Assembly (NCBI GenBank): GCA_023382435.1
Contig: JAHDVS010000008.1
Location: 12,272-76,271, forward strand
Source of the DNA: Thermoleophilia bacterium
GTDB taxonomy: Bacteria > Actinomycetota > Thermoleophilia > Gaiellales > Gaiellaceae
Direction of reading: 5' to 3'
Length of the DNA stretch: 64,000 nt
Below the pieces are notes generated by a model. That model ran no database searches. It saw nothing but the letters and a program-made list of their open reading frames with translations, and had not been told where the DNA came from. A program made the translations under genes and the position numbers. This document shows positions 37,468-58,491 of the stretch, piece by piece; the stretch's first letter is position 1; every line of letters begins with the position of its first letter.

Positions 37468-39005
37468 TCACGCGCGCAATCCTGTCGGTCTGGGACAAGA
37501 CCGGTCTCGACGAGCTCGCCCTCGGTCTCGCCGACCTCGGGGTGGAGCTGATCGCGAGCGGCGGCACGTCCGCCCGGCTCGCCGAGCTCGGGCTCGCGCA
37601 CACGCGCGTGGACGACGTGACCGGGTTCCCGGAGCTCCTTGGCGGACGGGTCAAGACGCTGCATCCGCGAATCCACGCGGGCATCCTCGCCCGGCGTGAC
37701 CTGGACGACGACCGCGACGCGCTCACCGAGCACGGGATCGAGCCGATCGACCTCGTCTGCGTCAACCTGTACCCGTTCGACGAGGTCGCCTGGCGCAAGG
37801 ACACACGCGAGGAGGAGGCCGTCGAGATGATCGACGTCGGCGGCCCCACCCTCCTTCGCGCCGCGGCCAAGAACTTCACGCACGTCGCGCCGGTCTGCTC
37901 CCCGACCCAGTACGGGCCCGTGCTCGCGGAACTGCGGAAGCAAGGGACGCTCTCGGCCTCGACGAGGCGCAAGCTCGCGGCCGCGACGTTCGCGTACACC
38001 GCCGCCTACGAGGCGTCGATCGCGGCCTGGTTCGCCGACCGCGAGGCGTTCCCGGCCCGCTTCGTCGTCGCGCTCGAGAAGCGGCTCGATCTCCCCTACG
38101 GCGAGAACCCCCACCAGCGCGCTGCCTACTACAGCGAGGCGGAAGCCGCCCGCCACCTGCTCTCGCGCGTAGAGCAGCGGTCCGGACGCGAGCTCTCGTT
38201 CAACAACCTGAACGACCTCTGGGCGGCGCGCTCGTTGCTCGAGGAGCTCTCGCTGCCGGCCTGCGTGATCGTCAAGCACGCGAACCCGTGCGGGTGCGCG
38301 CTCGCCGGCTCGATCGAGGACGCGTACGCGAAGGCGCTCGCATGCGACCCGGTGTCGGCCTACGGAGGCGTCGTCGCGCTCAACCGGACGGTCGAGGCGG
38401 AGCTCGCCCGCCAGCTCGCCGGCCAGTTCGTCGAGGTCCTGATCGCGCCGGACTACACGGAGGAGGCACTCGCCATCCTCGGCGCGAAGCCGTCGTCCCG
38501 GATCCTCGCGAGCGGCGAGCACAGGCTCGCGCCGGCCGGGGAGCGGGACTACCGGCGCGTGCTCGGCGGTTTCCTCGTCCAGGACGCGGACCTCGAGATG
38601 GACGAGCGGGACGGCATGGAGGTCGTGACCGGAGCGCACCCCTGCGAAGACTCGTGGGGCGACCTGCTGCTCGCCTGGCGCGTGGCCAGGCACGTCGCCT
38701 CGAATGCGATCGTGATCGCCAAGGGCCTCGCGACGATCGGGATCGGAGGGGGCCAGACGAGCCGCGTCGACGCCGTGCGGATCGCGCTCGACAAGGCGCG
38801 CGCGCACGGCCACGACCCGACGGGGGCCGCGCTCGCCTCGGATGCGTTCTTCCCCTTCGCCGACGGTGTCGAGCTCGCCCTCGACGCGGGCGTGACGGCG
38901 ATCGTCCAGCCCGGCGGCTCCAAGCGTGACGACGAAGTGGCCCGGGCGGTGGCGGAGGCGGGCGCCGCGATGGTGTTCACGGGCCGCCGTCACTTCAAAC
39001 ATTGA
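37464..39005 (+). CDS. purH: bifunctional AICAR transformylase / IMP cyclohydrolase
   Basis: VITRAILSVWDKTGL.., GGRVKTLHPRIHAGIL, ..FTGRRHFKH end; GTGA overlap with purN. Confidence 0.92.
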   Translation: MITRAILSVWDKTGLDELALGLADLGVELIASGGTSARLAELGLAHTRVDDVTGFPELLGGRVKTLHPRIHAGILARRDLDDDRDALTEHGIEPIDLVCVNLYPFDEVAWRKDTREEEAVEMIDVGGPTLLRAAAKNFTHVAPVCSPTQYGPVLAELRKQGTLSASTRRKLAAATFAYTAAYEASIAAWFADREAFPARFVVALEKRLDLPYGENPHQRAAYYSEAEAARHLLSRVEQRSGRELSFNNLNDLWAARSLLEELSLPACVIVKHANPCGCALAGSIEDAYAKALACDPVSAYGGVVALNRTVEAELARQLAGQFVEVLIAPDYTEEALAILGAKPSSRILASGEHRLAPAGERDYRRVLGGFLVQDADLEMDERDGMEVVTGAHPCEDSWGDLLLAWRVARHVASNAIVIAKGLATIGIGGGQTSRVDAVRIALDKARAHGHDPTGAALASDAFFPFADGVELALDAGVTAIVQPGGSKRDDEVARAVAEAGAAMVFTGRRHFKH

Positions 39006-39021
39006 AGTAGAGTTTCGGAAG

Positions 39022-40419
39022 ATGCCCCGCGAATACCCCACGGTGCTCGAGCTCGTCGGGGGAACGCCGATCGTCCGGCTCGCGCGGCTCGGCCGCGACG
39101 ACGGGCCGCAGTTGCTCCTGAAGCTCGAGTACATGAACCCGGGCGGCAGCGTCAAGGACCGGATCGGACTCGCGATGATCGAACGGGCCGAGCGGGAGGG
39201 GAAGCTCCGGCCGGGCGGAACGATCGTCGAGCCGACGAGCGGCAATACCGGTGTCGCGCTCGCGATGGCCGCGGCCGTGCGCGGCTACCGCTGCATCTTC
39301 GTGATGCCGGACAAGATGAGCCAGGAGAAGATCTCGCTCCTGCGCGCCTACGGCGCCGAGGTCGTGATCTGCCCGACCGCCGTCCCGCCCGAGTCGCCCG
39401 AGAGCTACTACTCGGTCTCCGACCGGCTGGCCGAGGAGATCCCGGGCGCGTACAAGCCGGACCAGTACTCGAACCCTGCCAACCCGGAGGCCCACTACAG
39501 GACAACCGGTCCGGAGATCTGGGAGCAGACCGGCGGCGAGCTCGACGCGATCGTCTTCGGCGTCGGCACCGGCGGCACCGTCAGCGGCAGCGCCCGCTAC
39601 CTGAAGGAGCGCAAGCCCGACCTGCTCGTCGTCGGCGCCGACCCCGAGGGTTCGATCTTCTCGTCCCCGACCGTCCACCCCTACCTGGTCGAGGGGATCG
39701 GCGAGGACTTCTGGCCCGAGACGTTCGACCGCTCCGTCGTCGACGAGTTCGTGACCGTCTCCGACCGGGGCTGCTTCGTGACCGCGCGGCGACTCGCGCG
39801 CGAGGAGGGCCTGCTCGTTGGTGGCTCGGGCGGCGCCGCCGCCGCAGCGCTGCTGGCCGTGGCCGAGCGCTTCGGGTCCGGCGCTTCGCTGCTCGCGCTC
39901 GTCCCGGACGGAGGCCGCGCCTACCTGTCGCGCTTCTACGACGACAACTGGATGCTCGAGCACGGCTTTGCCGAGCGGCGAGCCCCGGCGCCGACGATCG
40001 GGGAGGTGCTGGCGTTCAAGCGCGGAGAGGAACACGCGCCTGAGCTGATCGTGGTCGAGTCGCACCAGCCGGTCAGCCACGCAATCGAGCTGATGGAGCG
40101 CTACGGGATCTCCCAGCTCCCGGTCGTGCGGCACGAGCCCGCGCAGTCGCTCGCGGACGTGATCGGCTCGGTCCGCGAGCGCGGCCTGCTCGAGCGGCTC
40201 TACCGCAACCCCGGCGCGCTCGGCGACGACGTCGCCGGGCTGATGGAGGCGCCGCTGCCCGCGGTCGAGAGCGAGTCCTCGGTCGACGCCGTCTTCGCTG
40301 ACCTGTCGGGCGAGAGCCGCGCGGTCGTGGTCGCCCAGGCTGGGCGCCCCGCCGGCGTGCTGACCCGCGCCGACCTGCTCGAGTACCTGGCGCATCAGGG
40401 CGCGACCATCGTCACCTGA
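39022..40419 (+). CDS. cystathionine beta-synthase (PLP domain + CBS pair)
   Basis: NPGGSVKDRIG PLP-lysine motif, GVGTGGT loop, C-terminal tandem CBS-domain region. Confidence 0.88.
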   Translation: MPREYPTVLELVGGTPIVRLARLGRDDGPQLLLKLEYMNPGGSVKDRIGLAMIERAEREGKLRPGGTIVEPTSGNTGVALAMAAAVRGYRCIFVMPDKMSQEKISLLRAYGAEVVICPTAVPPESPESYYSVSDRLAEEIPGAYKPDQYSNPANPEAHYRTTGPEIWEQTGGELDAIVFGVGTGGTVSGSARYLKERKPDLLVVGADPEGSIFSSPTVHPYLVEGIGEDFWPETFDRSVVDEFVTVSDRGCFVTARRLAREEGLLVGGSGGAAAAALLAVAERFGSGASLLALVPDGGRAYLSRFYDDNWMLEHGFAERRAPAPTIGEVLAFKRGEEHAPELIVVESHQPVSHAIELMERYGISQLPVVRHEPAQSLADVIGSVRERGLLERLYRNPGALGDDVAGLMEAPLPAVESESSVDAVFADLSGESRAVVVAQAGRPAGVLTRADLLEYLAHQGATIVT

Positions 40420-40440
40420 CCTGCCTGTACGATCGCACCG

Positions 40441-41595
40441 GTGGAGTTCGAGACCCGCGCGATCCACACCGGTCAGGCGCCGGACCCGGAGACGGGCGCC
40501 GTGATCGTCCCGATCTACCAGACCTCGACGTTCGCGCAGGAGGCAGTGGGCCGCTTCCGGTACGACTACTCACGCACGGCGAACCCGACGCGCGAGGCGC
40601 TCGAGACGTGCCTTGCGTCGCTCGAGAGCGCGGAGCACGGGCTCGCGTTCGCGTCCGGGATGGCGGCGGCCACGACCGTGATGCACCTCGTCTCGCCGGG
40701 GGAGCGGGTGGCGTCGGTCAACGACGTCTACGGCGGCACCTACCGGCTGTTCGAGCGGGTCTATGCGCCGAAGGGGTACTCGTTCGACTACCTGACCGCC
40801 GAGGAACTGGGTGCCGGCCTGGCGGCGCGACTCGACGAGCGCACCCGTCTCGTCTGGGTCGAGACTCCGACCAACCCGTTCCTGCGGGTCGTCGACCTCG
40901 CGGCGGCGGCCGAGGCGGCCCACGCTGTCGGCGCGCTGCTCGTCGTCGACAACACGTTCGCGACGCCGTACCTCCAGCGCCCGCTCGAGCTCGGCGCCGA
41001 CCTCGTCCTCCACTCGACGACGAAGTACCTCGGCGGGCACTCGGACGTCGTCGGCGGCTTCGTCGCGACGGGCGACGGCGCGCTCGCTGAGCGCCTGGGC
41101 TTCCTTCAGAACTCGCTCGGGGCGGTGCCTGGCCCATTCGACTCCTGGCTCGTCCTCCGCGGGCTCAAGACCCTGTCCCTGCGGATGCGCGAGCACTGCG
41201 CGAACGCCCGGCAGGTCGCCGCCTTCCTCGACGGACACCCCACGGTCGCCCGGGTGCACTACCCGGGCCTGGCCGGCCACCCCGGCCACGAGATCGCCGC
41301 GAGCCAGATGCACGACTTCGGCGGGATGGTCTCGTTCGAGGTCGATGGCTCCCGCGAGGACGCGCTGCGCGTCGTCGAGCGCACGCGCCTGTTCACGCTC
41401 GCCGAGAGCCTCGGCGGCGTCGAGAGCCTGATCGAGCACCCGGGGCTGATGACGCATGCGAGCCTCGCCGGCTCGCCGTTCGAGCTTCCCGACACGTTGA
41501 TCCGCCTCTCGGTCGGAATCGAGGCCGCCGCGGATCTCCTCGCCGACCTGGAGCAGGCCCTCGCCGGCACGGCCCCGCACGCGGGCGGGTCCTGA
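40441..41595 (+). CDS. cystathionine gamma-lyase/synthase family PLP enzyme
   Basis: YSRTANPTREALE and HSTTKYLGGHSD (PLP lysine) motifs. Confidence 0.88.
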   Translation: MEFETRAIHTGQAPDPETGAVIVPIYQTSTFAQEAVGRFRYDYSRTANPTREALETCLASLESAEHGLAFASGMAAATTVMHLVSPGERVASVNDVYGGTYRLFERVYAPKGYSFDYLTAEELGAGLAARLDERTRLVWVETPTNPFLRVVDLAAAAEAAHAVGALLVVDNTFATPYLQRPLELGADLVLHSTTKYLGGHSDVVGGFVATGDGALAERLGFLQNSLGAVPGPFDSWLVLRGLKTLSLRMREHCANARQVAAFLDGHPTVARVHYPGLAGHPGHEIAASQMHDFGGMVSFEVDGSREDALRVVERTRLFTLAESLGGVESLIEHPGLMTHASLAGSPFELPDTLIRLSVGIEAAADLLADLEQALAGTAPHAGGS

Positions 41596-41603
41596 CGCGG
41601 CCG

Positions 41604-42638
41604 TCAGACGGCGCCGGCCGAGCAGGCGAGCTCGTAGGCGGCGACGTAGTCGCGCACCATCCGGGCCGGTGCGAACCGCTCCTCGGCTGCGCGCCGGCAC
41701 TCGCGAGGGTCGATCCGCCGGACTTCGAGGATCGCGCCGGCCAGCCCGGCTTCGTCGTCGACGATCAGGCCGCTGCGCCCGTGCTCGATCACCTCCGGCA
41801 CCGCGCCACGCCGGGTGGCGACGACGGGGGTGCCACACGCCATCGACTCCACCATCACGAGGCCGAACGGCTCCTCCCACGAGATCGGGAAGATCGTGGC
41901 TCGCGCGCCCTGGAGCAGCGCCACCTTCTCCGCGTGGGTGACCTCGCCGAGGTATTCGATCCCCCGGCCCAGGTTCGGGCGCACGTGCGCCTCGAAGTAC
42001 TCCCGCTCCAGGGGCTCGCGCATCTTGCCCGCGAGCTTGAGCGGCAGGCCCACCCGCCGCGCCGCCTCGATCGCGCGGTGCGCGCCCTTCTCGAATGACA
42101 GGCGGCCCAGGAACAGCAGATAGTCGCCGCGGCCGGGATCGAACGGATAGTGCTCGAGGTCGATCGCGTTCGGGCAGTTCGCGAGCCACGGCAGGTCCGG
42201 GCGCGGCCGTCGCTGATTGAGCGAGAGCGAGATCAGACCGAGCCGCGGGGCAACACCGGCCACCTGCCCGTAGACGACCCCGGCCTCCCCGTCGAGCGGC
42301 CCGTGCACCGTGTGCACCACAGGCGTCGCGACCGTCCCGGCGAGCGCGGCCGCGGGCAGGCCCGAGTGGTCGTTGACGACATCGAACTCCCCGGCTCGCA
42401 CGAAGCACGTGAGCGCGTGACGCAGCTCGGTGAGCGAGGTGCCGATCCGTTCGGACGGCGCGCGCTCGTACACCGAGACGAGCCGCGCGGCCGTCCGCGA
42501 GTCGCCGGAGGCAAACAGGGTCACGTCGTGGCCCGCTGCGACGAGACCGTCGGCCAGGACGGCGACGACCCACTCGATCCCGCCGTACCCGGTCGGGGGC
42601 ACCGGGAACCAGACCGGGGCCAGGAGAGCAACCCTCAC
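41604..42638 (-). CDS. GT4-family glycosyltransferase
   Basis: C-terminal 344 aa of track ORF (VRVALLAPVWFPVPPTGYGGIE...); EEPFGLVMVESMACGTPVVA E-x7-E motif; GTGA overlap with the upstream gene. Confidence 0.85.
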   Translation of the reverse strand: MRVALLAPVWFPVPPTGYGGIEWVVAVLADGLVAAGHDVTLFASGDSRTAARLVSVYERAPSERIGTSLTELRHALTCFVRAGEFDVVNDHSGLPAAALAGTVATPVVHTVHGPLDGEAGVVYGQVAGVAPRLGLISLSLNQRRPRPDLPWLANCPNAIDLEHYPFDPGRGDYLLFLGRLSFEKGAHRAIEAARRVGLPLKLAGKMREPLEREYFEAHVRPNLGRGIEYLGEVTHAEKVALLQGARATIFPISWEEPFGLVMVESMACGTPVVATRRGAVPEVIEHGRSGLIVDDEAGLAGAILEVRRIDPRECRRAAEERFAPARMVRDYVAAYELACSAGAV

Positions 42639-44698
42639 GTTGCGTCCACCGTCACCCTGCTCTCCTCGAGCCGCACGTCCCAGGCCAGATCGAACGCCCG
42701 CAGGCCCGAGAGACGCAGAGACCCGGCCCACGTGGGCAGCTCTTCCGGAGCGCGCGAGACCAGCACGTGACGGCTGGGGTCGGGCTCGAGTCCGAGCAGC
42801 ACCCGCAGGAGCAGCACCGGCGTTCCGGCCGCCCACGCCTGCGGCCGCGTCGCGGTCGGGTAGGCGATCGGGAAGGGCGTCTCCACCCGGGCGAAGCCGG
42901 CGAACACCTCCGGCAGCTCGTGGTCGAACCACGTGCTCGCGTCGATGATCCGACGAACGATGCGCTGCGCCTCCTGCCAGCGCCCGTACCGCGCGAGCCC
43001 CCAGGCGATCAGCGAGTTGTCGTGGGGCCAGACGGTGCCGTTGTGGTAGGCAAGCGGGTTGTAGCCAGCGTCGGCGGTCGACATCGTTCGGACGCCCCAG
43101 CCCGACCACAGCTCGTCCCCCATCAGCCGGTCGACGATCGCGTCTGCGCGCTCCGGCGGGACGATCCCGCTCCAGAGGAGATGACCGATATTCGAGCAGA
43201 GCGAGTCGACCGGCCGCTTGGCCCGGTCGAGCGCGAGCGCGTAGTAGCCGCCGCGCCGATCGACCCAGAACGCCTCGTCGAACCGCCGCGCCAGCTCGGC
43301 CGCCTCCCGCTCGAGCCGCTCGGAGAGCTCGCGCTCCCGCCAGACCTCGCGCGCCAGCTCGGCGACGCGCAGCTTCGCGTCGTACACGTAGCCCTGGGCC
43401 TCCGCTGGCGCGATCGGCGCCTCCGCCAGGCGCCCGCCGGCGAACCGCTGCGAGTTGCCGGAGTCCTTCCACGACTGGTTCTCGAGCCCCCTCGACGAGC
43501 GCCGTCGGTACTCGACGAACCCGTCCCCGTCGAGGTCGGCGAAGTTCTCGATCCAGCCGAGCGCCCGCAGCGCCGGCTCGCGGAGGCTGCGGACGAGATC
43601 CACATCGTCCGTCCAGCGCCAGACCTCCGAGAGCAGGATCAGGTACAGCGGCGTCGCGTCGATCGTGCCGTAGTAGCGGGGAAACCAAGCCTCCGCCCCA
43701 CGACCGTGCCTGACCTCGTGGACGATCTTCCCCGGCTCCGCGTCGATCTCCGGGTCGTCTTCGAGCGCCTGCAGGCCAGCAAGCGTGTGCAGGGCGGCAA
43801 CCGCAAGCTCGGGACCGAACAGGAGCGTCTGCAGGCACGTGATCAGGGTGTCGCGCCCGAAGACGGCCATGAACCACGGCATCCCGGCGGCAGGAAGCTG
43901 GCCGGCGCCGTCCCCGCCCCGCATCCGCAGCGCGGCGAGGTCCGACACCGAGCGGTCGAACGCGTGCCCGAGATCGTCCCAGCTCCCGCGCAGCTGAGGC
44001 ACGCGCAGGTGCCAGACGGCGAGCGACTCCTGGATCCGATCGAGCTCCTCGCCGAACCGGCGCTCGGCCGTGCGGGCCGGCACCCGCACCCCGTCGGTGG
44101 AGGCGATCACGTCGATCCGCAAGCTCCAGCGGCCGCGCGGCTCGAGCGCCACGCGGTAGCGAACGGTGCCGCCCTCGACCTCGCCCCGGTGCGAGAGCAG
44201 CACCTGCGTCTCACCGCGAAAGCCGTCCCCGGTGGCGAAGACGAGGCGGTTCTCGGACGGGTCGAAACGTGGAGGAACGGGGGTGGCGGGCAGTGCTCGC
44301 CCGGGATCGCCGAGCGCGGCGTCGAACGCCTTGACGGCGAAGATGTCCGCGAAGTCGGCACCGAACTCGAGCCCCACCTCGAGCTCGACCGGGTGGCCGG
44401 CGTGGTTCGTCAGGATCACGTGCTCCTGCATGTCGCGGCCGACGAAGCGCCTCCGCTCGATCGAGACCTCGTCGCTCGCGAGCCCGCCCACCGGGGGGTT
44501 GCGTAGAAACCAGGCCGCCGAGTAGTACTCGACGCGGCCGTGGGAAAGCCGGAGCGGGCTGGCTCCGTTGACCGTGAGGACGAGCCGGGAGAGGAAGCGG
44601 GTGTCGGCCTCGAAGAAGCCGTCGGTCGGCTCCGCGATGTCCCCGCGCTCGTCGGAGATGCAGAACGTCGCGCCTTCGAGGATCGTGATCCGGGCCAC
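42635..44698 (-). CDS. amylo-alpha-1,6-glucosidase / glycogen-debranching-type protein
   Basis: 687 aa from GTG 44698 (VARITILEGATFCISDERGD...); GMPWFMAVFGRDTL and YHNGTVWPHDN motifs. Confidence 0.8.
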   Translation of the reverse strand: MARITILEGATFCISDERGDIAEPTDGFFEADTRFLSRLVLTVNGASPLRLSHGRVEYYSAAWFLRNPPVGGLASDEVSIERRRFVGRDMQEHVILTNHAGHPVELEVGLEFGADFADIFAVKAFDAALGDPGRALPATPVPPRFDPSENRLVFATGDGFRGETQVLLSHRGEVEGGTVRYRVALEPRGRWSLRIDVIASTDGVRVPARTAERRFGEELDRIQESLAVWHLRVPQLRGSWDDLGHAFDRSVSDLAALRMRGGDGAGQLPAAGMPWFMAVFGRDTLITCLQTLLFGPELAVAALHTLAGLQALEDDPEIDAEPGKIVHEVRHGRGAEAWFPRYYGTIDATPLYLILLSEVWRWTDDVDLVRSLREPALRALGWIENFADLDGDGFVEYRRRSSRGLENQSWKDSGNSQRFAGGRLAEAPIAPAEAQGYVYDAKLRVAELAREVWRERELSERLEREAAELARRFDEAFWVDRRGGYYALALDRAKRPVDSLCSNIGHLLWSGIVPPERADAIVDRLMGDELWSGWGVRTMSTADAGYNPLAYHNGTVWPHDNSLIAWGLARYGRWQEAQRIVRRIIDASTWFDHELPEVFAGFARVETPFPIAYPTATRPQAWAAGTPVLLLRVLLGLEPDPSRHVLVSRAPEELPTWAGSLRLSGLRAFDLAWDVRLEESRVTVDAT

Positions 44699-44712
44699 CC
44701 GCGCGAGCTTAC

Positions 44713-45693
44713 TTAGCTCGCGAGGTCCGCGAGCACCCGCCGGGCCTCCTCGACGAGCCCGCGAACCACCGCCGCGGCGGGGACGACGTCCCGGACGAGC
44801 GCGACGCCCTGGCCCGCATACGTCGCCATCGCCTCGATCTCCCCGGCCATCCCGGCCAGCGGGTCGTCGGCGGCGTAGCGCACCACCTCGTAGCCCTCGG
44901 CGGCACGCGCGACGACCTCGCCCTCGCCGGGGCGGCTGCCGTCCGGCGGGCAGCCCGCCTCCCGCCAGCGGCGGACGGTCGAGTTGACGAGCGCCCTCGA
45001 AGGCGCGCCCCGCCAACCGACGTCGAACAGGGTCGAGAGCAGCGTGTCGGTCTCGACGGCCCCGACGAGACGACGCTTGTAGTCCTCGTGCACGGGTGCC
45101 TCGACGGTCGCGACGAAGCGAGTGCCGACCCAGCCCGCCTGCGCGCCCAGAGCGAGCGCGGCCGCGAGGGTTCGCCCGTCCGCGATTCCGCCCGCGGCGA
45201 TCACCGGCACCGGCGAGACCCCGTCGACGACCGCCGGCACGAGCGCCAGCGTCGAGACCTCGCCCCGGACATGGCCACCCGCCTCCCAGCCCTGCGCGAC
45301 GACGGCGTCGACGCCGGCGGCGACGGCCTGGCGAGCCTCCTCGGCACTGGCCACCGTCGAGAGCACGAGGCCGCCCGCAGCGTGCACGGCCGGGACGTAG
45401 GGGGCCGGGTCGCCCCAGTGGAACGAAACGAGACGTACGCCCTCCTCGAGCAGAACGGCGAGCCGCTCGTGCTGTGGCCACTCGAGCACGAGGTTGACAG
45501 CAAACGGACGAGCGGTCAGAGCGCGTGCCTCGCGGATCGTCTCCCTGAGACCGTCCGGCGAGAGCCAGCTTCCCTGGAACTGCCCGAGCCCGCCCGCGTT
45601 CGAGACCGCGGCGGCCAGAGCTGCGCCGCGGGAGATCGGCGCGAGCACCACGGGGGCGTCGATCCCGAGCGTGTCGCAGAGCGGCGTGCGCAC
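44713..45693 (-). CDS. nitronate monooxygenase-family FMN oxidoreductase
   Basis: LGIDAPVVLAPI.., VIAAGGIADGR motifs; start GTG 45693 or TTG 45699. Confidence 0.8.
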   Translation of the reverse strand: MRTPLCDTLGIDAPVVLAPISRGAALAAAVSNAGGLGQFQGSWLSPDGLRETIREARALTARPFAVNLVLEWPQHERLAVLLEEGVRLVSFHWGDPAPYVPAVHAAGGLVLSTVASAEEARQAVAAGVDAVVAQGWEAGGHVRGEVSTLALVPAVVDGVSPVPVIAAGGIADGRTLAAALALGAQAGWVGTRFVATVEAPVHEDYKRRLVGAVETDTLLSTLFDVGWRGAPSRALVNSTVRRWREAGCPPDGSRPGEGEVVARAAEGYEVVRYAADDPLAGMAGEIEAMATYAGQGVALVRDVVPAAAVVRGLVEEARRVLADLAS

Positions 45694-45695
45694 GC

Positions 45696-45941
45696 TCAAG
45701 CGCCGGGGCCGGCCGCGACGTCGGCGAGCGCGCCGAGGTTGCGCGACGGGTGACGGCCGTGCGCGAGGCCCACCAGGTACGTCGCCAGCGGCGCGTTCTG
45801 GCGCTCGCCGCTGCCGTGAGCGGCCGCCCGGGCCAGCTCGAGCAGGATGTCGATGTCGGCCTGCGCGAGCGTGTACCCGGCCGGGTCGTCGCCGACGGCC
45901 GCAGCGAGATCGGCATGCGCGCGCTCGAGCCACTCGTGCAT
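45696..45941 (-). CDS. small DUF6457-like protein
   Basis: 81 aa, MHEWLERAHADLAAAVG...ILLELARAAAH...PLATYLVGLAHGR pattern (family from memory). Confidence 0.5.
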   Translation of the reverse strand: MHEWLERAHADLAAAVGDDPAGYTLAQADIDILLELARAAAHGSGERQNAPLATYLVGLAHGRHPSRNLGALADVAAGPGA

Positions 45942-46104: not shown

Positions 46105-46740
46105 ATGAGAGAGGCATTGACGGCGGCGATCGCCGACATCCGCGAGGAGGACGCGCTGGAGCTCACCCAGCAGATGCTCGATGCGGGGGAGGATCCCCGC
46201 GAGATCCTCGAGGCCTGCCGCGAGGGCATGGCGCTCGTCGGCGCACGCTACGAGGAGAAGGACTACTTCCTGCCCGAGCTGATCGTCGCGGGTGACGTGC
46301 TGAAGGCGATCGCCGAGATCGTGAAGCCGCTGCTCCAGGGCGACGGAGAGGGCGCGGACACGCTCGCCACGATCGTGATCGGCACCGTCGAGGGCGACAT
46401 CCACGACGTGGGGAAGGACATCGTCGCGTTCATGCTGGACTCGAACAACTTCGAGGTGATCGACCTCGGTGTCGACGTCCCGGCCTCGAAGTTCATCGAG
46501 GAGATCGAGACGCGCCAGCCTGAAATCGTTGCCATGAGCGGGTTCCTGACGCTCGCGTTCGACCAGATGAAGAACACGGTCGCCGCCATCGACGAGGCCG
46601 GGCTGCGCGACCGCGTCAAGATCATGATCGGCGGCGCCCCGATGGACGACACCGTCACGAAGTACATCGGCGCCGACGCCTACGGCACCGACGCCTCGGC
46701 GGCCGTGACACTCGCGAAGAGCTGGGTAGGAGGGAGCTAG
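46105..46740 (+). CDS. cobalamin-binding corrinoid protein (methyltransferase cognate)
   Basis: GTVEGDIHDVGKDIV (DxHxxG), SGFLT, MIGGAP motifs; N-terminal B12-binding_2-like helical cap; GGAGG 6 nt upstream. Confidence 0.88.
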   Translation: MREALTAAIADIREEDALELTQQMLDAGEDPREILEACREGMALVGARYEEKDYFLPELIVAGDVLKAIAEIVKPLLQGDGEGADTLATIVIGTVEGDIHDVGKDIVAFMLDSNNFEVIDLGVDVPASKFIEEIETRQPEIVAMSGFLTLAFDQMKNTVAAIDEAGLRDRVKIMIGGAPMDDTVTKYIGADAYGTDASAAVTLAKSWVGGS

Positions 46741-46742
46741 CC

Positions 46743-48005
46743 ATGACGGAGATGGCAGACGTCGCAACGAAGACGACGGAGGACCTCTATCAGGAGCGAG
46801 TTCAGCGCATCCTGGACTGCGTCGCCCTCAAGGAGCCGGACCAGGTCCCGATCATGGGCCCGTACGAGCTGTTCCCGTATCAGTACGCCGGGGTGACGTT
46901 CAAGGACGCCATGAACGACTACGCAGTCGCCCGGGAAGCCTGCCACACGTTCCTGGACGACTTCCGGCCGGACGCGGACTTCGGGCCGATTCTCGCCTAC
47001 CCCGCGAAGGCGATGGCGATGCTCGACGTCAAGTGGTTTCGCTGGCCCGGAAACGGCCTCGGCGACAACACGATGTACCAGTTCGTCGAGGGCGAATACA
47101 TGACCGCCGACGAGTACGACGAGTTCGTCTACGACCCGTCGCACTTCATGCTCTCGAAGTGGCTGCCCCGTTCCTTCGGCTCGCTGGAGGGGCTCGCCGG
47201 CTGGCCGCCCGCACGCCTGATGATGTGGTTCGGGTGGACGGGCCTGCTCGCCGGAATGGCCGATCCCGGGGTGCAGAAGGCGCTGCGAAACGCGCTCGAC
47301 GCCGGCGAGGAGCTGGGCCGCTGGTTCGGCTCGATCGGCCAGTACGCGCAGGAGATCAAGGCCAAGGGCTTCCCACAGGCGTTCGGGGCCTTCTCGTGGG
47401 CACCCTTCGACATCGTCGGCGACACGCTGCGCGGGACGCGCGGGATCCTGTCCGACATCGTCCGGCGCCCGGATCAGCTGCTCGCGGCCACGAACAAGGC
47501 GACGCAACTCTGCGTCGAGTACGCGGCCGGGGCGGCCGGAGCCGACCTGCCGCTGTGCTGGATCTGGCTGCACAAGGGCTCGGAAGGCTTCATCTCCGAC
47601 GCGCAGTTCAAGAAGTTCTACTGGCCGTCGCTGCTCGAGGCGATCGAGGGGATGGTCGAGAAGGGCGTGATCCCGGTTGTCTACTGCGAGGGCGACGACA
47701 CCTCGCGGCTCGAGTACTTCACGCAGGTGCCCGAGAAGAGCGTGATCTTCCACATGGCCGTGATGGACATGAAGAAGGCGAAGGAGATGCTCGGCGACAT
47801 CGCGGCGATCTCCGGCAACGTCCCCAATCGCCTGCTCCTGACCGCCACGCCCGACGACGTGCGCGACTACTGCAAGGGGCTGATCGACACGTGCGGGGAG
47901 GGTGGCGGCTACATCATGGACACCTCGGCCCTGCTCGACGAGGCGAAGGTCGAGAACGTGCGCGCCATGTTCGACGTGACCCGCGAGTACGGCGTGTACC
48001 GTTGA
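46743..48005 (+). CDS. URO-D / MtaA-superfamily methyltransferase (corrinoid-dependent, substrate unknown)
   Basis: 420 aa, starts 2 nt after the corrinoid protein; ERVQRILDCVALKEPDQVPIMGPY N-terminus typical of URO-D-like methyltransferases. Confidence 0.65.
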   Translation: MTEMADVATKTTEDLYQERVQRILDCVALKEPDQVPIMGPYELFPYQYAGVTFKDAMNDYAVAREACHTFLDDFRPDADFGPILAYPAKAMAMLDVKWFRWPGNGLGDNTMYQFVEGEYMTADEYDEFVYDPSHFMLSKWLPRSFGSLEGLAGWPPARLMMWFGWTGLLAGMADPGVQKALRNALDAGEELGRWFGSIGQYAQEIKAKGFPQAFGAFSWAPFDIVGDTLRGTRGILSDIVRRPDQLLAATNKATQLCVEYAAGAAGADLPLCWIWLHKGSEGFISDAQFKKFYWPSLLEAIEGMVEKGVIPVVYCEGDDTSRLEYFTQVPEKSVIFHMAVMDMKKAKEMLGDIAAISGNVPNRLLLTATPDDVRDYCKGLIDTCGEGGGYIMDTSALLDEAKVENVRAMFDVTREYGVYR

Positions 48006-48012
48006 AAGCGGT

Positions 48013-48046
48013 TGGCCCGGGCGGCCCGGCCGGGCCGCCCGGGCCA
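48013..48046. promoter_or_regulatory. perfect 34-bp GC palindrome between the methyltransferase and activase genes (hairpin: attenuator/terminator/processing site candidate)
   Basis: TGGCCCGGGCGGCCCGGCCGGGCCGCCCGGGCCA equals its reverse complement; sits in the 46-nt gap 48006..48051. Confidence 0.6.
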
Positions 48047-48051
48047 CTGGC

Positions 48052-49890
48052 GTGATGACGACGTTCCAGGTCGACTTCCAGCCGATCGGCCGGCGCGGTC
48101 CCTGCCGGCCCGACGAGTCGTTCCTCGAGTTCGCCCGGGAGCTCGGCATCGACCTGATCAGTCTCTGCGGAGGCCACGGGCTGTGCGCGCGCTGCCGCGT
48201 GCAGATCGTGGAGGGACATGTCAGCGACCCGACCGGCGCGGACGAGGAGCACCTCACCGAGCGCGAGCTGGCCGAGGGCTACCGCCTGGCGTGCGGCTGC
48301 TTCCCACGGGGTGACTGCACCGTCGGCGTGCCACCGGAGTCCCTCAGCACCGCGATGCGCTCGCAGATCGAGAGCCGTGAGACAGAGGTCGCGCTCGCGC
48401 CGCTCGTCGCGGCGGTCGAGCTGGCTCTGCCCCGACCCTCGCTCGAGCACCCCGCAGCCGACGCGGACAGCCTGCTGGCCGCCCTGCGCGGGCGTCCGGG
48501 ACCCCGGGTGGACGCCGTGGACGTCGACGTCCTGCGCCGGCTCTCGCCCGACCTGAGAACGTGGGACTGGAGCTGCGCGGCGATCGTCCGCGGGCGCGAA
48601 GTGATCTCGGTCGCGCCCCCCGGCTCGCGGCCCGTGGGCCTGGCCGTGGATCTCGGGACGACAGGAGTCGCCGGCTACCTGCTCGACCTGGCAAGCGGCG
48701 AGGTCGTCGCCAGCAAGGGCACCATGAACCCGCAGATCGCCTACGGCGAGGACATCGTCAGCAGGATCACCTATGCGAGGAACTCGCCGGAGCAGAGAGA
48801 GCGGCTGCGGGAGGTAGCGATCGCCGGGCTGAACCAGCTCGCCGCCGAGCTGTGCGCCGAGGCGGGCCTGTCGGCGACCGACGTGGCGGAGGCGGTGGTC
48901 GTCGGCAACACGGCGATGCACCACCTCCTGATTGGCCTGCCCACCGAGCAGCTCGCGCTCTCACCGTTCGTGCCGGCCGTCAGCGACGCACTGGCGATCA
49001 AGGCCCGGGACGCCGGCCTCCGGCTCGCACCGGGCGCCTACCTCTGCCTGCTTCCGAACATCGCCGGGTTCATCGGCGGCGACCACGTCGCGATGCTGCT
49101 GGCGACCGCCGGCGACTGGCGCGGACGGCACGCGATCGCCCTCGACATCGGGACGAACACCGAGATCTCGCTGATCACGCCGGACGGCGCGGTTCGCTCG
49201 CTCTCCTGCGCGTCGGGCCCGGCGTTCGAGGGCTACCACATCAAGGACGGAACGCGCGCGACGGCCGGAGCGATCGAACGTGTTCAGGTCACGGACGAGT
49301 CGGTTCGCTTCCAGACGATCGGCGCCGCCGAGCCCTCCGGGATCTGCGGGTCCGGGATCCTGGACGCGATCGGCCAGTTGCACCTCGCCGGCGTGCTGAG
49401 CTCGAACGGGCGGATCCAGCTCGGCTCGCATCCGCGCGTCCGGGAGGCCGACGGAACGCGCGAGTTCGTGCTCGTCACGGAGGAGGAGCGCGGCGGCCGG
49501 AAGGCGATCTCGGTCACGCAGGAGGACGTCCGGGAGATCCTGCTCGCCAAGGCGGCGATCCAGACCGGCATCGGAGTCCTGCTCGCCGAGAGCGCCCTTG
49601 CCGCCGAGGAGCTCGACGTGATCGTGATCGCCGGGGCGTTCGGAAGCTACATCGACGTCGAGAACGCGATCGCGATCGGCCTCTTCCCGCCGCTCCCGCT
49701 CGACCGCTTTCGCCAGGTCGGCAATGCGGCCGGGCTGGGCGCCAAGCTCGCGCTAGCCTCCTCGGTAGTGCGCGACGAGGCCCGGGAGCTTCTCGACCGG
49801 GTCGACTACCTCGAGCTGGCGCGCTACCCGGGCTTCTCGCGCCTCTACGGGGAGAACTGCCGCCTCGCGGCGGTGGAGCCGGCGCGATGA
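48052..49890 (+). CDS. RACE-type reductive activator of corrinoid enzymes ([2Fe-2S] ferredoxin + ASKHA ATPase)
   Basis: CGGHGLCARC..C ferredoxin motif; DLGTTGVAGY, GNTAMHHLLIG, IGGDHVA, DIGTNTEI ASKHA motifs. Confidence 0.85.
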   Translation: MMTTFQVDFQPIGRRGPCRPDESFLEFARELGIDLISLCGGHGLCARCRVQIVEGHVSDPTGADEEHLTERELAEGYRLACGCFPRGDCTVGVPPESLSTAMRSQIESRETEVALAPLVAAVELALPRPSLEHPAADADSLLAALRGRPGPRVDAVDVDVLRRLSPDLRTWDWSCAAIVRGREVISVAPPGSRPVGLAVDLGTTGVAGYLLDLASGEVVASKGTMNPQIAYGEDIVSRITYARNSPEQRERLREVAIAGLNQLAAELCAEAGLSATDVAEAVVVGNTAMHHLLIGLPTEQLALSPFVPAVSDALAIKARDAGLRLAPGAYLCLLPNIAGFIGGDHVAMLLATAGDWRGRHAIALDIGTNTEISLITPDGAVRSLSCASGPAFEGYHIKDGTRATAGAIERVQVTDESVRFQTIGAAEPSGICGSGILDAIGQLHLAGVLSSNGRIQLGSHPRVREADGTREFVLVTEEERGGRKAISVTQEDVREILLAKAAIQTGIGVLLAESALAAEELDVIVIAGAFGSYIDVENAIAIGLFPPLPLDRFRQVGNAAGLGAKLALASSVVRDEARELLDRVDYLELARYPGFSRLYGENCRLAAVEPAR

Positions 49891-50582
49891 CCGTCAGGCG
49901 GGACTTCGAGCTCGTTTTCGACGACTCCTACTTCGTCCGGCTCCACGGCGACGGCTTCGCCCGGCTGCTCGAGCAGCCGGCGCGTCGGGCCCGGCTCGCC
50001 TCCGTACTCGAGGAGGCGCGCGAGGTGATGGAGCCGGCCGCGTGCTACGACGCCTTCCCGATCGAGAAGGTCATGCACGGCCAGTTCCGGCTTGCCGGAG
50101 GCACCCGGATCGGCGGTGGCCCGGTGGTCGAGGTGCTCGGCGGTGCCGAGGTCCTGTACGCGGCGATCTGCACGATCGGGTGCGCCCTCGACGAGCGCGT
50201 GCGCGCCCATCGCGAGGCGGGGCGGCGCTTCGAGATGCTGATGCTCGACGAGCTCGGCTCGTGGGCGGTCGACCAGGTGCGTCAGCAGCTCTACGAGGGG
50301 CTCAGCTGCGAGCTCGCCGGGCGCGACTGGCGCACGAGCAGCCCCCTTTCCCCGGGCGAGGGTGTCTGGTCGATCCGCGAGCAGCGGACGATCTTCAAGC
50401 TGCTCGATGCCGACGAGATCGGGGTCAGGCTGCTGCCCTCCTACGTGATCGAGCCGATGAAGTCCCTGACCGTCGTGTTCGGGGCCGGTGCCAGCCCGAT
50501 GGGCGTAGAGGGGCTGACGAACTGCGACTTCTGCTCGATCCAGGACCGCTGCCGCTACGCGGGAGCACGCATCGCGCACTAG
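49887..50582 (+). CDS. homologue of the MetH AdoMet-binding reactivation domain, with C-terminal C-x2-C-x5-C
   Basis: 231 aa; ATGA overlap with the activase; SPGEGVWSIREQRTIFKLLDADEIGVRLLPSYVIEPMKSLTVVFG resembles the MetH activation-domain core. Confidence 0.65.
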   Translation: MTVRRDFELVFDDSYFVRLHGDGFARLLEQPARRARLASVLEEAREVMEPAACYDAFPIEKVMHGQFRLAGGTRIGGGPVVEVLGGAEVLYAAICTIGCALDERVRAHREAGRRFEMLMLDELGSWAVDQVRQQLYEGLSCELAGRDWRTSSPLSPGEGVWSIREQRTIFKLLDADEIGVRLLPSYVIEPMKSLTVVFGAGASPMGVEGLTNCDFCSIQDRCRYAGARIAH

Positions 50583-51709
50583 CCGGCGCGCGCGAGCAGC
50601 ACGTGCGCTGCCACGGCGAGCAGGTAGAAACCGGCGAAAGTCGCCCCCAGCGCCGGATAGCCGCCGAGATGGAGCGCGAGGCCGCCGAGGCTGCTGCCGA
50701 CGAGATAGCCGAGCTGCGTGGCGGAGGCGCGGATTCCCATCGCCGTTACGGCCCGGCCCGGCGCGACCTCGAGACCGACGACGCTCCCGACAATCGTCCG
50801 ACCCGAGTTCAGGAACACGAAGACGGACAGCAGCGCCACCGTCAGCCAGAGGCCCGGGCGAACCGACCCGATCAGCGCGGCGGCGACCGCCGCCCCGAGC
50901 GCGAGCATGACGAGCAGCCGTCTGGGCGAACGGTCGAGGCCGCGTCGTGCGAGCCAGCTTCCGGGTAGGTAGGCGAGGAAGACGACACCCAGCAGGAGCC
51001 CCGTCGTGCGCAGCGAGGCGCCATAGCTCTCGATCAGAAGCGCGCCGGAGTAGACGAGCCAGCCGGTCCAGGCCGAGAAGCAGAGCACCTCCCCGGCCGC
51101 CCAGCCGGCGATCGCCCGGTCACGAACGAGCAGGCCCAGGTCGGCGCGCAGGCTCGTCCGTTGCACCGGGACGGCAGGCAGCGTCGCGACGAGGACGAAC
51201 GCGACCAGCGCCGCGGCGATGGGAAGCGCCACCCAGGTAAGTCGCCAGCTAACCGAGCCGACGAACCCGACCACGGGCATGCCGACGAGCCAGGCGAGCG
51301 CCTGGCCCGAGAACGTGACCGAGAGCGCGTCCGCCCGTCGCTCGGGCGCGATCCAGGCGATCGCACCTGCGACGGCGCCGGCGAGCAGAATGGCGAGCGC
51401 GCCCCCCAGCAGCGCCTGCGCGGCCGCAAGCACCGCGAACGTCGGCGCGGCCGCGCTGAGCCCGCAGGCCGCAGCGAGCAAACCAAGCCCGGCGAGCAGC
51501 ATCCTGCGCAAGCCGAGCCTGCCGGCGAGCGGGCCCGCCGCGAGCGCCGTCATGCCCGCCACGGCCCCCGAGACCGAGCGCAGCTGGCCGGCAGCCGCGG
51601 TCGAGACGTCGAAGTCCCGCGCGATCTCGACGAGGATCGGCGCGAGCACGAGCGTGGCCGACTGGTTCGCGAACAGGGTCAGAGAGAGCGTCGCCGCCGG
51701 CCGGAGCAC
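50579..51709 (-). CDS. MFS transporter
   Basis: About 12 hydrophobic segments; start set to GVG 51709 (read as GTG) (alternative ATG 51769 would lie 3 nt from the divergent SDR start). Confidence 0.8.
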   Translation of the reverse strand: MLRPAATLSLTLFANQSATLVLAPILVEIARDFDVSTAAAGQLRSVSGAVAGMTALAAGPLAGRLGLRRMLLAGLGLLAAACGLSAAAPTFAVLAAAQALLGGALAILLAGAVAGAIAWIAPERRADALSVTFSGQALAWLVGMPVVGFVGSVSWRLTWVALPIAAALVAFVLVATLPAVPVQRTSLRADLGLLVRDRAIAGWAAGEVLCFSAWTGWLVYSGALLIESYGASLRTTGLLLGVVFLAYLPGSWLARRGLDRSPRRLLVMLALGAAVAAALIGSVRPGLWLTVALLSVFVFLNSGRTIVGSVVGLEVAPGRAVTAMGIRASATQLGYLVGSSLGGLALHLGGYPALGATFAGFYLLAVAAHVLLARAG

Positions 51710-57027: not shown

Positions 57028-58491
57028 TCAGTCTCGCAGGAACTGCTCGACCAGCTCGACCGCCCGCGTCTTGTCGGCGATCGTGTAGGCGAGCGCGGTC
57101 ATCCGGTAGGAGTCGGAGAGGTAGAAGCGCTCGTACAGCTCGCCGCGGCCGCCGAGATCGGAGCCGACGAAGTCCCACGCGAGCCGGAACAGCCGGATCC
57201 GCCGCTCGGCGTCCGCGCCCGCGGCCTGGAAGTAGACGGCGATCGCTTCGCCGATCGGCCCGTTCACATCGGCCTCGGAGGGGGTGCACATGAAGCCGCC
57301 GCCGCCGATCAGCTGGAGCAACTCGTTCACGCGCGGCATCCACTTCGGCATCTCGCCCCGTAGGGCGAGGAAGGGACGGTCGTCCGGGTACCAGACCCCG
57401 CCCTCGTCGAGGGCCGAGCCGGCCTCGGCGGCCACGATCGCCGAGCGGGTCAGCTCGACCATGTTCCAGATCTGGCCGAGCTTCTCCTGGATGTGGTCGA
57501 AGCGCACGACCCCGGTCGTGTTCCCGAGCAGGTGACCGATCCCGAACGCGAACAGGAGCTTCACGTAGGCGCGCGTGAACGCCTGGTGCATGATGTGGCC
57601 GCGCCAGCCGGTGTCGGTGATCACCTCCGAGTAGCCGACCGGGTCGCCGCAGAGGAAGACCCGCTCCCAGGGAACGACGACGTCGTCGAAGATCGCGACC
57701 GCGTCCATCTCGTCGAAGCGCGACGAGAGCGGGTAGTCAAAGGCGCTGCGGCCCTTCGCGAACGAGTCCCGGCAGACGAACTTCAGCCCCGGCGTCGCGA
57801 TCGGGATCGCGAACGCGAGCGCGTAATTGCCGTCCTGCGGGCGGATATCGGAGCCCGGGTAGACGCTCAGCTCGTCGGCGAACGGGGCCAGCGTGGCCAG
57901 CATCCGGGCGCCGCGCACGACGATGCCCTCGCTCGCCTCCCCGACCTTGTGCAGCGCGACCTCGCCGGCGGCCTGCTCCGCCTCTGGCTTCGAGCGGTCG
58001 ACCTGCGGATTGATGATCGAGTGCGTGGTCGAGAGGTCGCGGTCGCGCATCTCCTTCTGGTAGCTGACGATGTTGGCCGCCCCGCGCTCGTTGCCCCGCC
58101 GCGCCCACACGTCCGCGCGGCCGGCGAAGCAGGCGAACGTGACGTTCAGGTAGTCGGGCGTGCGGCCCATCATCCCGGCGGTCGCGCCCGCGATCAGCTC
58201 GAACGCGCGGCGGCGGCGCTCGAGGTCGTCCCGCGAGCGCGGGATCAGGTGGGTGACCCCCACGAGCGAGCCATCGTCGGGGGAGGGCATCAGCAGCTCG
58301 TCGGGGTGCTCATGCTGGAGGTCGAAGACGCGCGCGAGCGAGCGGGCACCCTGCTCGAGTTTCGGGTGCTCGAGCGGGTTGCCGATCCGCTCGCCCTCGA
58401 GCCAGATCTCGCGCTCGCCCCTCGCCAGCCCCTCGAGGAACTGCTGCCCGGTGCGGGCGCGCACTTTCGGGGTCGTCTCGGTCGTGGCCAT
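57028..58491 (-). CDS. hpaB: 4-hydroxyphenylacetate 3-monooxygenase oxygenase component family
   Basis: 487 aa; HSIINPQVDRSK and the overall HpaB-type pattern. Confidence 0.88.
   Translation of the reverse strand: MATTETTPKVRARTGQQFLEGLARGEREIWLEGERIGNPLEHPKLEQGARSLARVFDLQHEHPDELLMPSPDDGSLVGVTHLIPRSRDDLERRRRAFELIAGATAGMMGRTPDYLNVTFACFAGRADVWARRGNERGAANIVSYQKEMRDRDLSTTHSIINPQVDRSKPEAEQAAGEVALHKVGEASEGIVVRGARMLATLAPFADELSVYPGSDIRPQDGNYALAFAIPIATPGLKFVCRDSFAKGRSAFDYPLSSRFDEMDAVAIFDDVVVPWERVFLCGDPVGYSEVITDTGWRGHIMHQAFTRAYVKLLFAFGIGHLLGNTTGVVRFDHIQEKLGQIWNMVELTRSAIVAAEAGSALDEGGVWYPDDRPFLALRGEMPKWMPRVNELLQLIGGGGFMCTPSEADVNGPIGEAIAVYFQAAGADAERRIRLFRLAWDFVGSDLGGRGELYERFYLSDSYRMTALAYTIADKTRAVELVEQFLRD

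Follow-up and report, generated by a model that had tools for sequence, protein, structure and literature searches.

Corrinoid methyltransferase systems belong to the textbook biochemistry of anaerobes. In systems of the CdmBCA type, the methyl group passes via CH3-Co(III) to a second, pterin-binding methyltransferase (MT-II), and an activator of the RACE/RACo type is needed (PMC13222342). CdmB, described in 2026, is the chloromethane:corrinoid methyltransferase of Acetobacterium dehalogenans and contains no zinc. It has been shown experimentally to be a substrate:cob(I)alamin methyltransferase (MT-I) of the UroD superfamily, and its kin are the aryl O-demethylases MtvB, OdmB, VdmB and MtoB (PMC13222342). 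Corrinoid systems also have aerobic precedents, CmuAB (PMC13222342) and MtgBCD (PMC12478193). The split methionine synthase of Phaeobacter inhibens needs both a RamA-like Fer2 plus DUF4445 protein and a DUF1638 protein (PMC5764234). In Ruegeria pomeroyi both are induced together with MtgBCD, the glycine betaine system (PMC12478193). Study of how aerobes maintain the oxygen-sensitive Co(I) state is only beginning, with this RamA and DUF1638 pair of marine Alphaproteobacteria. Here we analyze a 64-kb stretch of DNA from a Thermoleophilia bacterium (contig JAHDVS010000008.1), referred to as the window, and within it a corrinoid methyltransferase module of four plus-strand open reading frames (ORFs) at 46105-50582.

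The four genes encode, in order, a corrinoid protein (CP), a UroD-superfamily methyltransferase (MT), a RACo/RACE-type ATP-dependent reductive activator of corrinoid proteins (RACo) and a protein, called G4 here, with the fold of the activation domain of methionine synthase (MetH). From sequence comparison, we think it probable that this operon encodes the substrate-side half of a three-component corrinoid demethylase along with two proteins that jointly repair the cofactor. Our confidence in this overall architecture is much greater than in any particular chemistry for G4. The module is not missing a methyltransferase and carries no redundant activator. Two things are new here, the MT-I clade and the family of G4, including the tie of G4 to RACo. 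A preliminary description of this DNA had given the coordinates and order of the four genes, the 2-nt spacing of the first two and the coupling of the last two, and these are confirmed by the ORFs as read in the window. The stop of CP and the start of MT are 2 nt apart (TAG-CC-ATG), and the stop of RACo overlaps the start of G4 as ATGA.

RACo (48052..49890, plus strand, 612 aa) and G4 (49887..50582, plus strand, 231 aa) form a conserved pair. In each of the 14 non-redundant loci where the two occur, G4 sits directly 3′ of RACo, the gap between them ranging from -4 to 122 nt. This order spans three phyla and two different MT-I paralogues. It is kept where the pair precedes the other two genes (L050, RACo-G4-CP-MT) and where the MT-I is a different one (L091). 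Because the order is fixed and the genes are translationally coupled or separated by tiny gaps, the arrangement is typical of cooperating subunits. The preliminary description correctly saw an ATP-dependent activator and a MetH-activation-domain homologue side by side. A reading of the two as a surprising duplication does not survive the comparison, since RACo and G4 are a conserved pair in 14 loci rather than a redundancy. The description also held that characterized systems have at most one activator and that an aerobic setting is unusual. Both statements are too strong because RamA-like and DUF1638 proteins are used together by aerobes (PMC5764234, PMC12478193).

Linkage was read from an unbiased genome scan with adequate flanks, comprising 32 loci with an MT at least 50% identical to that of the window and 13 loci with an MT below 50%. 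G4 lies within 6 kb of MT in 20/32 loci, 11 without RACo and 9 with it. Co-occurrence of all four genes had been suggested as a check; MT, RACo and G4 are found together in 9/32 loci, and it is the RACo-G4 order that is constant. RACo without G4 occurs in 2/32 loci, with further cases in L016-L020 and L054. G4 is absent from all 13 loci whose MT is less than 50% identical (0/13). Since RACo-less relatives have G4 alone beside CP and MT-I, of the two accessories G4 is the one more constantly found with this MT-I clade.

In two loci with an orthologous CP-MT, a DUF1638 gene takes the place of G4 between MT and RACo (L007, 9295-10020, and L038). Remote homology of G4 and DUF1638 was considered and rejected, with an hhalign probability of 0.2%. 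The two may be analogous partners of RACo. On an AT-rich contig (L094, 6001-8489), G4 and then the N-terminal part of RACo are read as one 478-aa ORF (P0458), which adjoins a CP and a URO-D gene. This ORF was considered as a Rosetta-stone fusion of G4 and RACo and was downgraded to adjacency, as RACo is there spread over three ORFs amid many tiny ORFs.

G4 itself has no match in Pfam or NCBIfam even at E ≤ 10, PF02965 included, and its homology was therefore shown by profile and structure. With phmmer, the single G4 sequence finds TM0269 (PDB 1J6R) at 3.4e-4, and a profile of 25 G4 sequences finds it at 1.4e-10. The AlphaFold2 model of G4 has a mean predicted local distance difference test score (pLDDT) of 90.5. 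Foldseek matches this model to 1J6R (E 3.5e-11, TM 0.76) and then to reactivation domains from the MetH proteins of Thermus, E. coli and human, with a probability of 1.0 for 1J6R, 8SSD, 3IVA, 6BM5, 1MSK and 2O2K. Homologues of G4 score 16-26 bits against PF02965, for which the cut-off is 25, and P0475 (26.2 bits) alone passes. Some G4 homologues carry a precomputed PF02965 match. In the profile-HMM check that had been proposed for the four families, the B12-binding, URO-D and Fer2/RACo assignments all held, and the methionine-synthase activation domain was not detected on G4.

One difference between G4 and its structural relatives lies in the ligand-binding motif. AdoMet (S-adenosylmethionine) binding in this methyltransferase class is defined by the motif RxxxGY (PMC9508554). 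TM0269 has RISPGY at this position and the G4 of the window has PLSPGE. In an exhaustive profile search the family has 6514 members at E ≤ 1e-3. At the stricter limits of 1e-10 and 1e-30 it has 3420 and 229, counted as 50%-identity cluster representatives. Conservation was read in 130 full-length representatives among the best matches. The R position is proline in 70/130 and arginine in 11/130. The Y position is M in 31, E in 25, Q in 16, S in 13, D in 11 and H in 8, and SPGY is carried by only 4 representatives. Canonical AdoMet binding by G4 is doubtful because RxxxGY has been lost. The preliminary description had called G4 a homologue of an AdoMet-binding reactivation domain. The homology stands, on the 1J6R profile match and on Foldseek, and the AdoMet-binding label cannot be taken over as it is. 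G4 is a member of the fold superfamily that fails the sequence-level tests of a canonical AdoMet-presenting activation domain.

G4 ends in NCDFCSIQDRC, which is the C-x2-C-x5-C tail noted earlier. Its three cysteines are kept in 128, 128 and 126 of the 130 representatives, and the tail falls outside the part that aligns with TM0269. Residues G98, G157, P190 and K192 are invariant in the same set. No methionine synthase is fused to G4 or lies beside it in the loci examined, where the neighbours are RACo and catabolic CP and MT-I genes. G4 is a large uncharacterized family, and a search of the searchable literature found no RACo-associated activation-domain protein. A separate observation concerns residue 158 (window 50358-50360), the former tyrosine position, which is an invariant glutamate in the close family. 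The variants found there across the wider family (M, E, Q, S, D and H) are all potential metal (cobalt) ligands. Residue 158 might track the partner corrinoid protein or might serve as an upper axial ligand, a pattern that is suggestive only.

The methyltransferase (46743..48005, plus strand) had been described as a 420-aa member of the URO-D/MtaA superfamily. Membership of the URO-D family is borne out by Pfam (PF01208, 1.2e-19). Its best solved relative is CdmB (9RUI), found at 6.5e-30 with the single sequence (107 bits) over a near-full-length alignment. The MT family profile finds CdmB at 5.2e-47 and MtaA (4AY7) at 3e-4. The zinc ligands of MtaA, H-x-C (H-I-C), align to Y314-C315-E316 of MT, so that the zinc motif is absent. 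We assign gene 2 to the MT-I (substrate:cob(I)alamin) type rather than to MT-II because CdmB far outranks MtaA in the profile and the H-x-C motif is missing. An MtaA-like thiol methyltransferase was considered and rejected, as it lacks its zinc motif here. The relationship of MT to CdmB is remote, and MT appears to belong to a separate, uncharacterized clade. Mean column identity within the MT family is 74%. Homologues 60-75% identical to MT are found in Thermoleophilia, Chloroflexota (Anaerolineae, Ardenticatenia, Caldilineales), Planctomycetota, Spirochaetota and one metagenome-assembled genome (MAG) of Acidobacteriota. All are annotated as hypothetical or as 'uroporphyrinogen decarboxylase family', and nothing on this clade was found in the searchable literature.

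The other two products are more conventional. The corrinoid protein (46105..46740, plus strand, 211 aa) was called a B12-binding protein with DIHDVG, and this is borne out. It matches Pfam PF02607 B12-binding_2 (5e-14) and PF02310 B12-binding (1e-22), a helical cap followed by a Rossmann B12 domain. Its best PDB matches are the small corrinoid proteins 4JGI (1.5e-46) and 1Y80 (8e-45). The DxHxxG motif, which holds the lower axial histidine of a His-on protein, is present in the translation as DIHDVG. With NCBIfam TIGR02370, CP reaches 165.7 bits, short of the cut-off of 215.3, and the named NCBIfam equivalogs MtbC, MtgC and MtaC all fall far below their curated cut-offs. CP is classed by these profiles as a corrinoid protein of unnamed specificity. 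Its gene is directly upstream of MT in 29/32 orthologous loci.

RACo has all four expected Pfam domains, Fer2, RACo_linker, Raco_middle and RACo_C_ter. It aligns at full length with RACo of Carboxydothermus (PDB 3ZYY, 3.4e-107, residues 3-590). The motifs CGGHGLCARC, DLGTTG, GNTAMHHL and DIGTNTE are all in the translation, and its description as a RACE-type activase with [2Fe-2S] and ASKHA motifs is upheld. The AcsV equivalog NF040756 gives 402 bits on RACo and does not reach its cut-off of 800. There are no acs genes near RACo.

A three-component system also needs an MT-II, and tblastn with two pterin-binding MT-II proteins finds none in the 64-kb window. The statement that the module has only one methyltransferase is correct for the window. 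It is incorrect as a trait of the system, since MT-II genes are present in the clusters of several relatives. The gene order is Pterin_bind-CP-MT-DUF1638-RACo in L007 and L038, CP-MT-RACo-G4-Pterin_bind in L053 (Spirochaetia) and CP-MT-Pterin_bind in L071. In L091 (2909-8669), which is Gaiellaceae-like, a Pterin_bind gene, a 450-aa MT-I paralogue and a CP gene are divergent from overlapping RACo-G4 genes. The paralogue is 43% identical to the MT of the window, and a methylenetetrahydrofolate reductase (MTHFR) gene is 5 kb away. The preliminary description had regarded a second methyltransferase just outside the cluster as damaging to its case. Such genes in the relatives' clusters go some way towards this, and none is adjacent in the window. 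The single methyltransferase is an operon-boundary effect. L091 also has genes for glyoxalase-fold and RraA-like proteins nearby, which could belong to an aromatic ring-cleavage route.

The search for an MT-II beyond the cluster, which had been recommended, was answered in a relative. The Thermoleophilia MAG GCA_020845695.1 carries a cluster that is 91% identical with the same synteny (L001), and has a stand-alone MT-II with MTHFR on another contig. This second locus (L092, 2166-9044, contig JADLFG010000007.1) contains MTHFR-Pterin_bind, the latter of 347 aa. Most simply, an MT-II encoded in trans would pass the methyl group to tetrahydrofolate. For acetogens, too, it is noted that different systems share an MT-II (PMC13222342). 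The L092 operon as a whole comprises GntR, a 209-aa protein, an MtaA-like URO-D protein (339 aa, HICG zinc motif), a CP (252 aa), a Cys-rich 85-aa protein, a RACo-like protein (546 aa), MTHFR with DUF5981, and Pterin_bind, and has no G4. Methyl transfer linked to thiols or to C1 compounds is a possible role for it.

The substrate cannot be deduced from the window, as had been said, where the neighbours (MFS, SDR, PntAB, HpaB) are uninformative. It is most likely a methyl ether. The relatives in Chloroflexota are more telling. Around CP-MT(-G4) they have sugar-type ABC transporters, GH4 glycosidases and several xylose-isomerase-like TIM barrels. They also have GFO/IDH/MocA and Zn-dependent dehydrogenases, UPF0261 and PEP-hydrolase-like proteins, PfkB and FGGY kinases, and regulators of the LacI, ROK, SorC and AraC types. 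Because of this gene neighbourhood, an O-methylated sugar or cyclitol, or a methoxylated glycoside or aglycone, is pointed to in Chloroflexota, as a lead and not as a result. A recurrent Chloroflexota locus around G4-CP-MT was seen in L090 (276-16717), L048, L049, L051, L057 and L058. It has an FAD oxidase with a CCG Fe-S protein, multicopy AP_endonuc_2, UPF0261, creatininase, GH4, GFO/IDH/MocA and LarA-like genes. This locus looks like an uncharacterized carbohydrate/cyclitol pathway with a cobalamin-dependent demethylation step.

These parts can be assembled into a working cycle. MT-I would bind the methylated substrate, and CP in the Co(I) state would take the methyl group to give CH3-Co(III), as judged by the relationship of MT-I to CdmB and to the MT-I enzymes of O-demethylases (step 1). 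An MT-II encoded elsewhere would then move the methyl group to tetrahydrofolate, and MTHFR would oxidize it (step 2). The genes for this step are present in the 91%-identical relative, and their use here is presumed. Co(I) would become oxidized to inactive Co(II), which RACo would re-reduce with ATP, given its full-length homology to the structurally characterized RACo (step 3). G4 and RACo would act as a unit in this repair. When MetH is in its reactivation conformation, its activation domain lies docked on cobalamin's upper face. We infer a capping of CP by G4 because G4 shares this fold; the cap would shift His-on CP to an easily reduced or protected state, or would shield and trap Co(I). 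G4 might in addition, or instead, relay an electron via a metal centre on its three cysteines, either an Fe-S cluster for electron entry or zinc. Where RACo is absent, some other reductant would have to serve G4.

A more ambitious proposal joins the two new families. G4 would be a new class of corrinoid-protein reactivation factor, a MetH-activation-domain fold that has lost AdoMet binding and gained a three-Cys metal centre. Working with RACo as an obligate partner or alone, it would render His-on CPs reducible in O2-exposed hosts. The MT-I clade would be the first cobalamin demethylase of aliphatic sugar or cyclitol methyl ethers (4-O-methylglucuronate, O-methyl-inositols, 6-O-methylgalactose), not of aryl methyl ethers or C1 compounds. 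As a joint statement this is tentative, and we hold it more doubtful than not.

Other arrangements of the same parts were weighed. RACo and G4 could be two independent repair routes, one driven by ATP and the other by AdoMet with flavodoxin or ferredoxin in a reductive methylation, each used, for instance, in its own redox or energy state. The preliminary description implied this reading. G4 without RACo in 11/32 loci, RACo without G4 in 2/32 loci and in L016-L020 and L054, and the replacement of G4 by DUF1638 in L007 and L038 would all fit this idea, as would the MetH activation domain, which needs no RACo. We consider it unlikely because of the lost AdoMet motif and because RACo, wherever both occur, precedes G4, translationally coupled to it or separated from it by a tiny gap, in three phyla and next to different MT-I partners. 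In Phaeobacter, moreover, the RamA-like protein and DUF1638 are each required and not redundant (PMC5764234). G4 could also serve in every turnover, as the AdoMet:cob(I)alamin methyltransferase of a self-contained biosynthetic methylase in which the UroD protein is the MT-II that acts on the substrate. This would give the module both of its methyltransferases and would account for the lack of an MT-II nearby. CP-MT-G4 without RACo or MT-II is in fact the commonest arrangement (11/32 loci, e.g. L003 and L005), and G4 has a class II AdoMet-methyltransferase fold. Such a methylase is nevertheless improbable, as RxxxGY is not conserved across the 130 G4 representatives, a pterin MT-II accompanies G4 in L053 and L091, and G4 tracks RACo rather than MT. 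MT is also far nearer to CdmB than to MtaA and has no thiol-activating zinc motif.

The remaining two alternatives concern what is methylated or demethylated. That CdmB is the closest solved relative might suggest a dehalogenating methyltransferase for chloromethane or dichloromethane, like CdmBCA, instead of an O-demethylase. A homologue 52% identical to MT is found in the dichloromethane degrader 'Ca. Formimonas warabiya' (L059), one of whose MT-I proteins has been placed in an uncharacterized 'Clade I' (PMC13222342). The similarity to CdmB is remote (107 bits with the single sequence), the neighbouring clades are aryl O-demethylases and specificity cannot be predicted from relatedness (PMC13222342). 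The recurrent neighbours are carbohydrate genes and not halide-stress or chloride-export genes, and we regard a haloalkane substrate as very improbable. Least credible, to the point of being rejected on the missing zinc motif in MT, is a split methionine synthase in which CP and the UroD protein methylate homocysteine with G4 as the reactivation subunit, as TM0269 is for TM0268. TM0269, the closest solved relative of G4, is indeed a separate reactivation subunit of Thermotoga MetH, according to a reference cited in PMC7857596. Genes resembling cystathionine beta-synthase and gamma-lyase, read from translations, lie 5-7 kb upstream in the window. The zinc motif missing from MT is the one that would activate homocysteine or another thiol, and neither a Pfam S-methyl_trans homocysteine-binding domain nor a pterin domain is present. 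The two cystathionine genes are absent from syntenic L001, and the neighbours of the family are catabolic.

Against these alternatives we favour a substrate-side half-system with a cooperating RACo-G4 repair unit. Several points weigh against it. Neither G4 nor RACo is near MT in 10/32 orthologous loci. The MT-II in trans was seen in a relative, and it may be dedicated to that relative's own corrinoid operon, L092. G4, without the R and Y of RxxxGY, may not bind AdoMet. The roles given to the MT-I clade and the G4 family are predictions from homology and gene context, and the metal site on G4 is putative. The three last ten-residue blocks of the G4 model, which hold the cysteine tail, have pLDDT values of 69, 56 and 28, so that this part is of low confidence. 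The sole fusion of G4 to RACo may be an assembly artefact or frameshift error, because RACo is split on the L094 contig. Carbohydrate genes surround the module in relatives from Chloroflexota and not in the window, where MFS, SDR and PntAB genes are found.

Beyond this one locus, the module points to a second solution for maintaining Co(I) in aerobes. This solution would be a MetH-activation-domain fold tied genetically to RACo, in a family with thousands of members; no study of it was found in the searchable literature. Whether ATP-driven reduction by RACo and MetH-style capping or trapping are combined in one machine is now testable. The MT-I clade, 60-75% identical over at least five phyla, has its Chloroflexota members in carbohydrate/cyclitol loci. 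If the clade demethylates O-methyl sugars, this would close a gap in plant and algal polysaccharide breakdown and would bring unactivated alkyl methyl ethers within the reach of cobalamin methyl-transfer chemistry.

Codon usage in the module is native. The window has a G+C content of ~72%. The G+C content at third codon positions (GC3) is 0.92-0.93 in all four genes and matches the rest of the window. CP and MT have a G+C of 0.66 against ~0.72, a dip that comes from codon positions 1 and 2. Recent horizontal transfer of CP and MT was considered on account of this lower G+C and rejected, since their GC3 of 0.93 is like that of the rest of the genome. With GC3 at the level of the window, the low G+C reflects amino-acid composition. 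An MFS transporter gene (50579..51709, minus strand, Pfam MFS_1) is convergent with G4 and overlaps it by 4 nt. It is followed by SDR and PntAB genes. The MFS gene is syntenic in L001, L010 and L011. It was considered as a conserved part of the module, but the MFS that holds this position in L091 shows no detectable similarity to it. Its link to the module stays weak for this reason, and it is possibly a substrate importer. HpaB (57028-58491), 6.5 kb from the module, supports the O2-using context that had been noted earlier. The judgement that such a setting is unusual is set aside by CmuAB and MtgBCD.

L001 has the order NMO, DUF6457, CP, MT, RACo, G4, MFS, SDR, PntAB, where NMO is nitronate monooxygenase. 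Between purH and the nitronate-monooxygenase-like gene (38926-45933), the window has four extra genes, read from translations as cystathionine beta-synthase-like, cystathionine gamma-lyase-like, glycosyltransferase and amylo-alpha-1,6-glucosidase-like. They are an insertion or deletion difference, since they are absent at this place in L001. The closest genome match is L010 (CAYJMF010000002.1), with an MT 96% identical and the same synteny, labelled 'uncultured Planctomycetota bacterium'. The label is probably a taxonomic mislabel or binning error, because the other close matches are Thermoleophilia/Actinomycetota and the window has a high G+C. Downstream of CP-MT-RACo in L016, L018 and L054 is a conserved block of its own. 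It encodes a nitroreductase, a shikimate-dehydrogenase-like protein, a PEMT/ICMT-like membrane methyltransferase, a B12-binding radical SAM protein, a SorC-type sugar-binding regulator, a DRL-type oxidoreductase and a zinc-dependent alcohol dehydrogenase.

Like CdmBCA of A. dehalogenans, MtvABC, OdmABD, Vdm and MtoABCD, the module places a zinc-free UroD-fold TIM-barrel MT-I beside a His-on CP of ~210 aa. Unlike them, its operon has no MT-II and has the additional G4. The host differs from that of CdmBCA in being an O2-using, high-GC Thermoleophilia-like actinobacterium and not an acetogen. Unlike the aryl O-demethylases, relatives of the MT occur in a carbohydrate and not an aromatic gene context. 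RACo shares with RACo of Carboxydothermus hydrogenoformans (3ZYY, 4C1N) and with RACE/RamA the identical domain order of [2Fe-2S] Fer2, linker, middle and ASKHA domains. Its client would be a His-on MtaC-type CP, whereas that of the C. hydrogenoformans protein is CoFeSP. It is also coupled to G4, and such a partner of characterized RACo enzymes was not found in the searchable literature.

G4 has the same fold as the MetH activation domain and TM0269 and, like them, is genetically tied to a cobalamin-binding protein. It differs from both in lacking RxxxGY and in the added C-x2-C-x5-C tail. Unlike the MetH domain, it is not beside MetH and is linked to RACo and a catabolic MT-I. For CmuA and CmuB we know of no G4-like partner. 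These proteins of aerobic methylotrophs resemble the module in using corrinoid-dependent UroD/MtaA-family methyl transfer to folate in aerobes. CmuA, an early-diverging member of the superfamily, is a fusion of MT-I and corrinoid protein (PMC13222342), in contrast to the separate genes of the window. A parallel for the repair unit is the RamA-like and DUF1638 pair of Phaeobacter, Ruegeria and Sinorhizobium. There, too, two accessory 'reactivation' proteins serve a modular corrinoid methyltransferase in an aerobe. A RACo-like Fer2 plus DUF4445 protein is again joined by a partner of ~230-240 aa (PMC5764234, PMC12478193). The methyltransferases served by the two pairs differ, being MttB-like in those systems and a UroD-family MT-I here.

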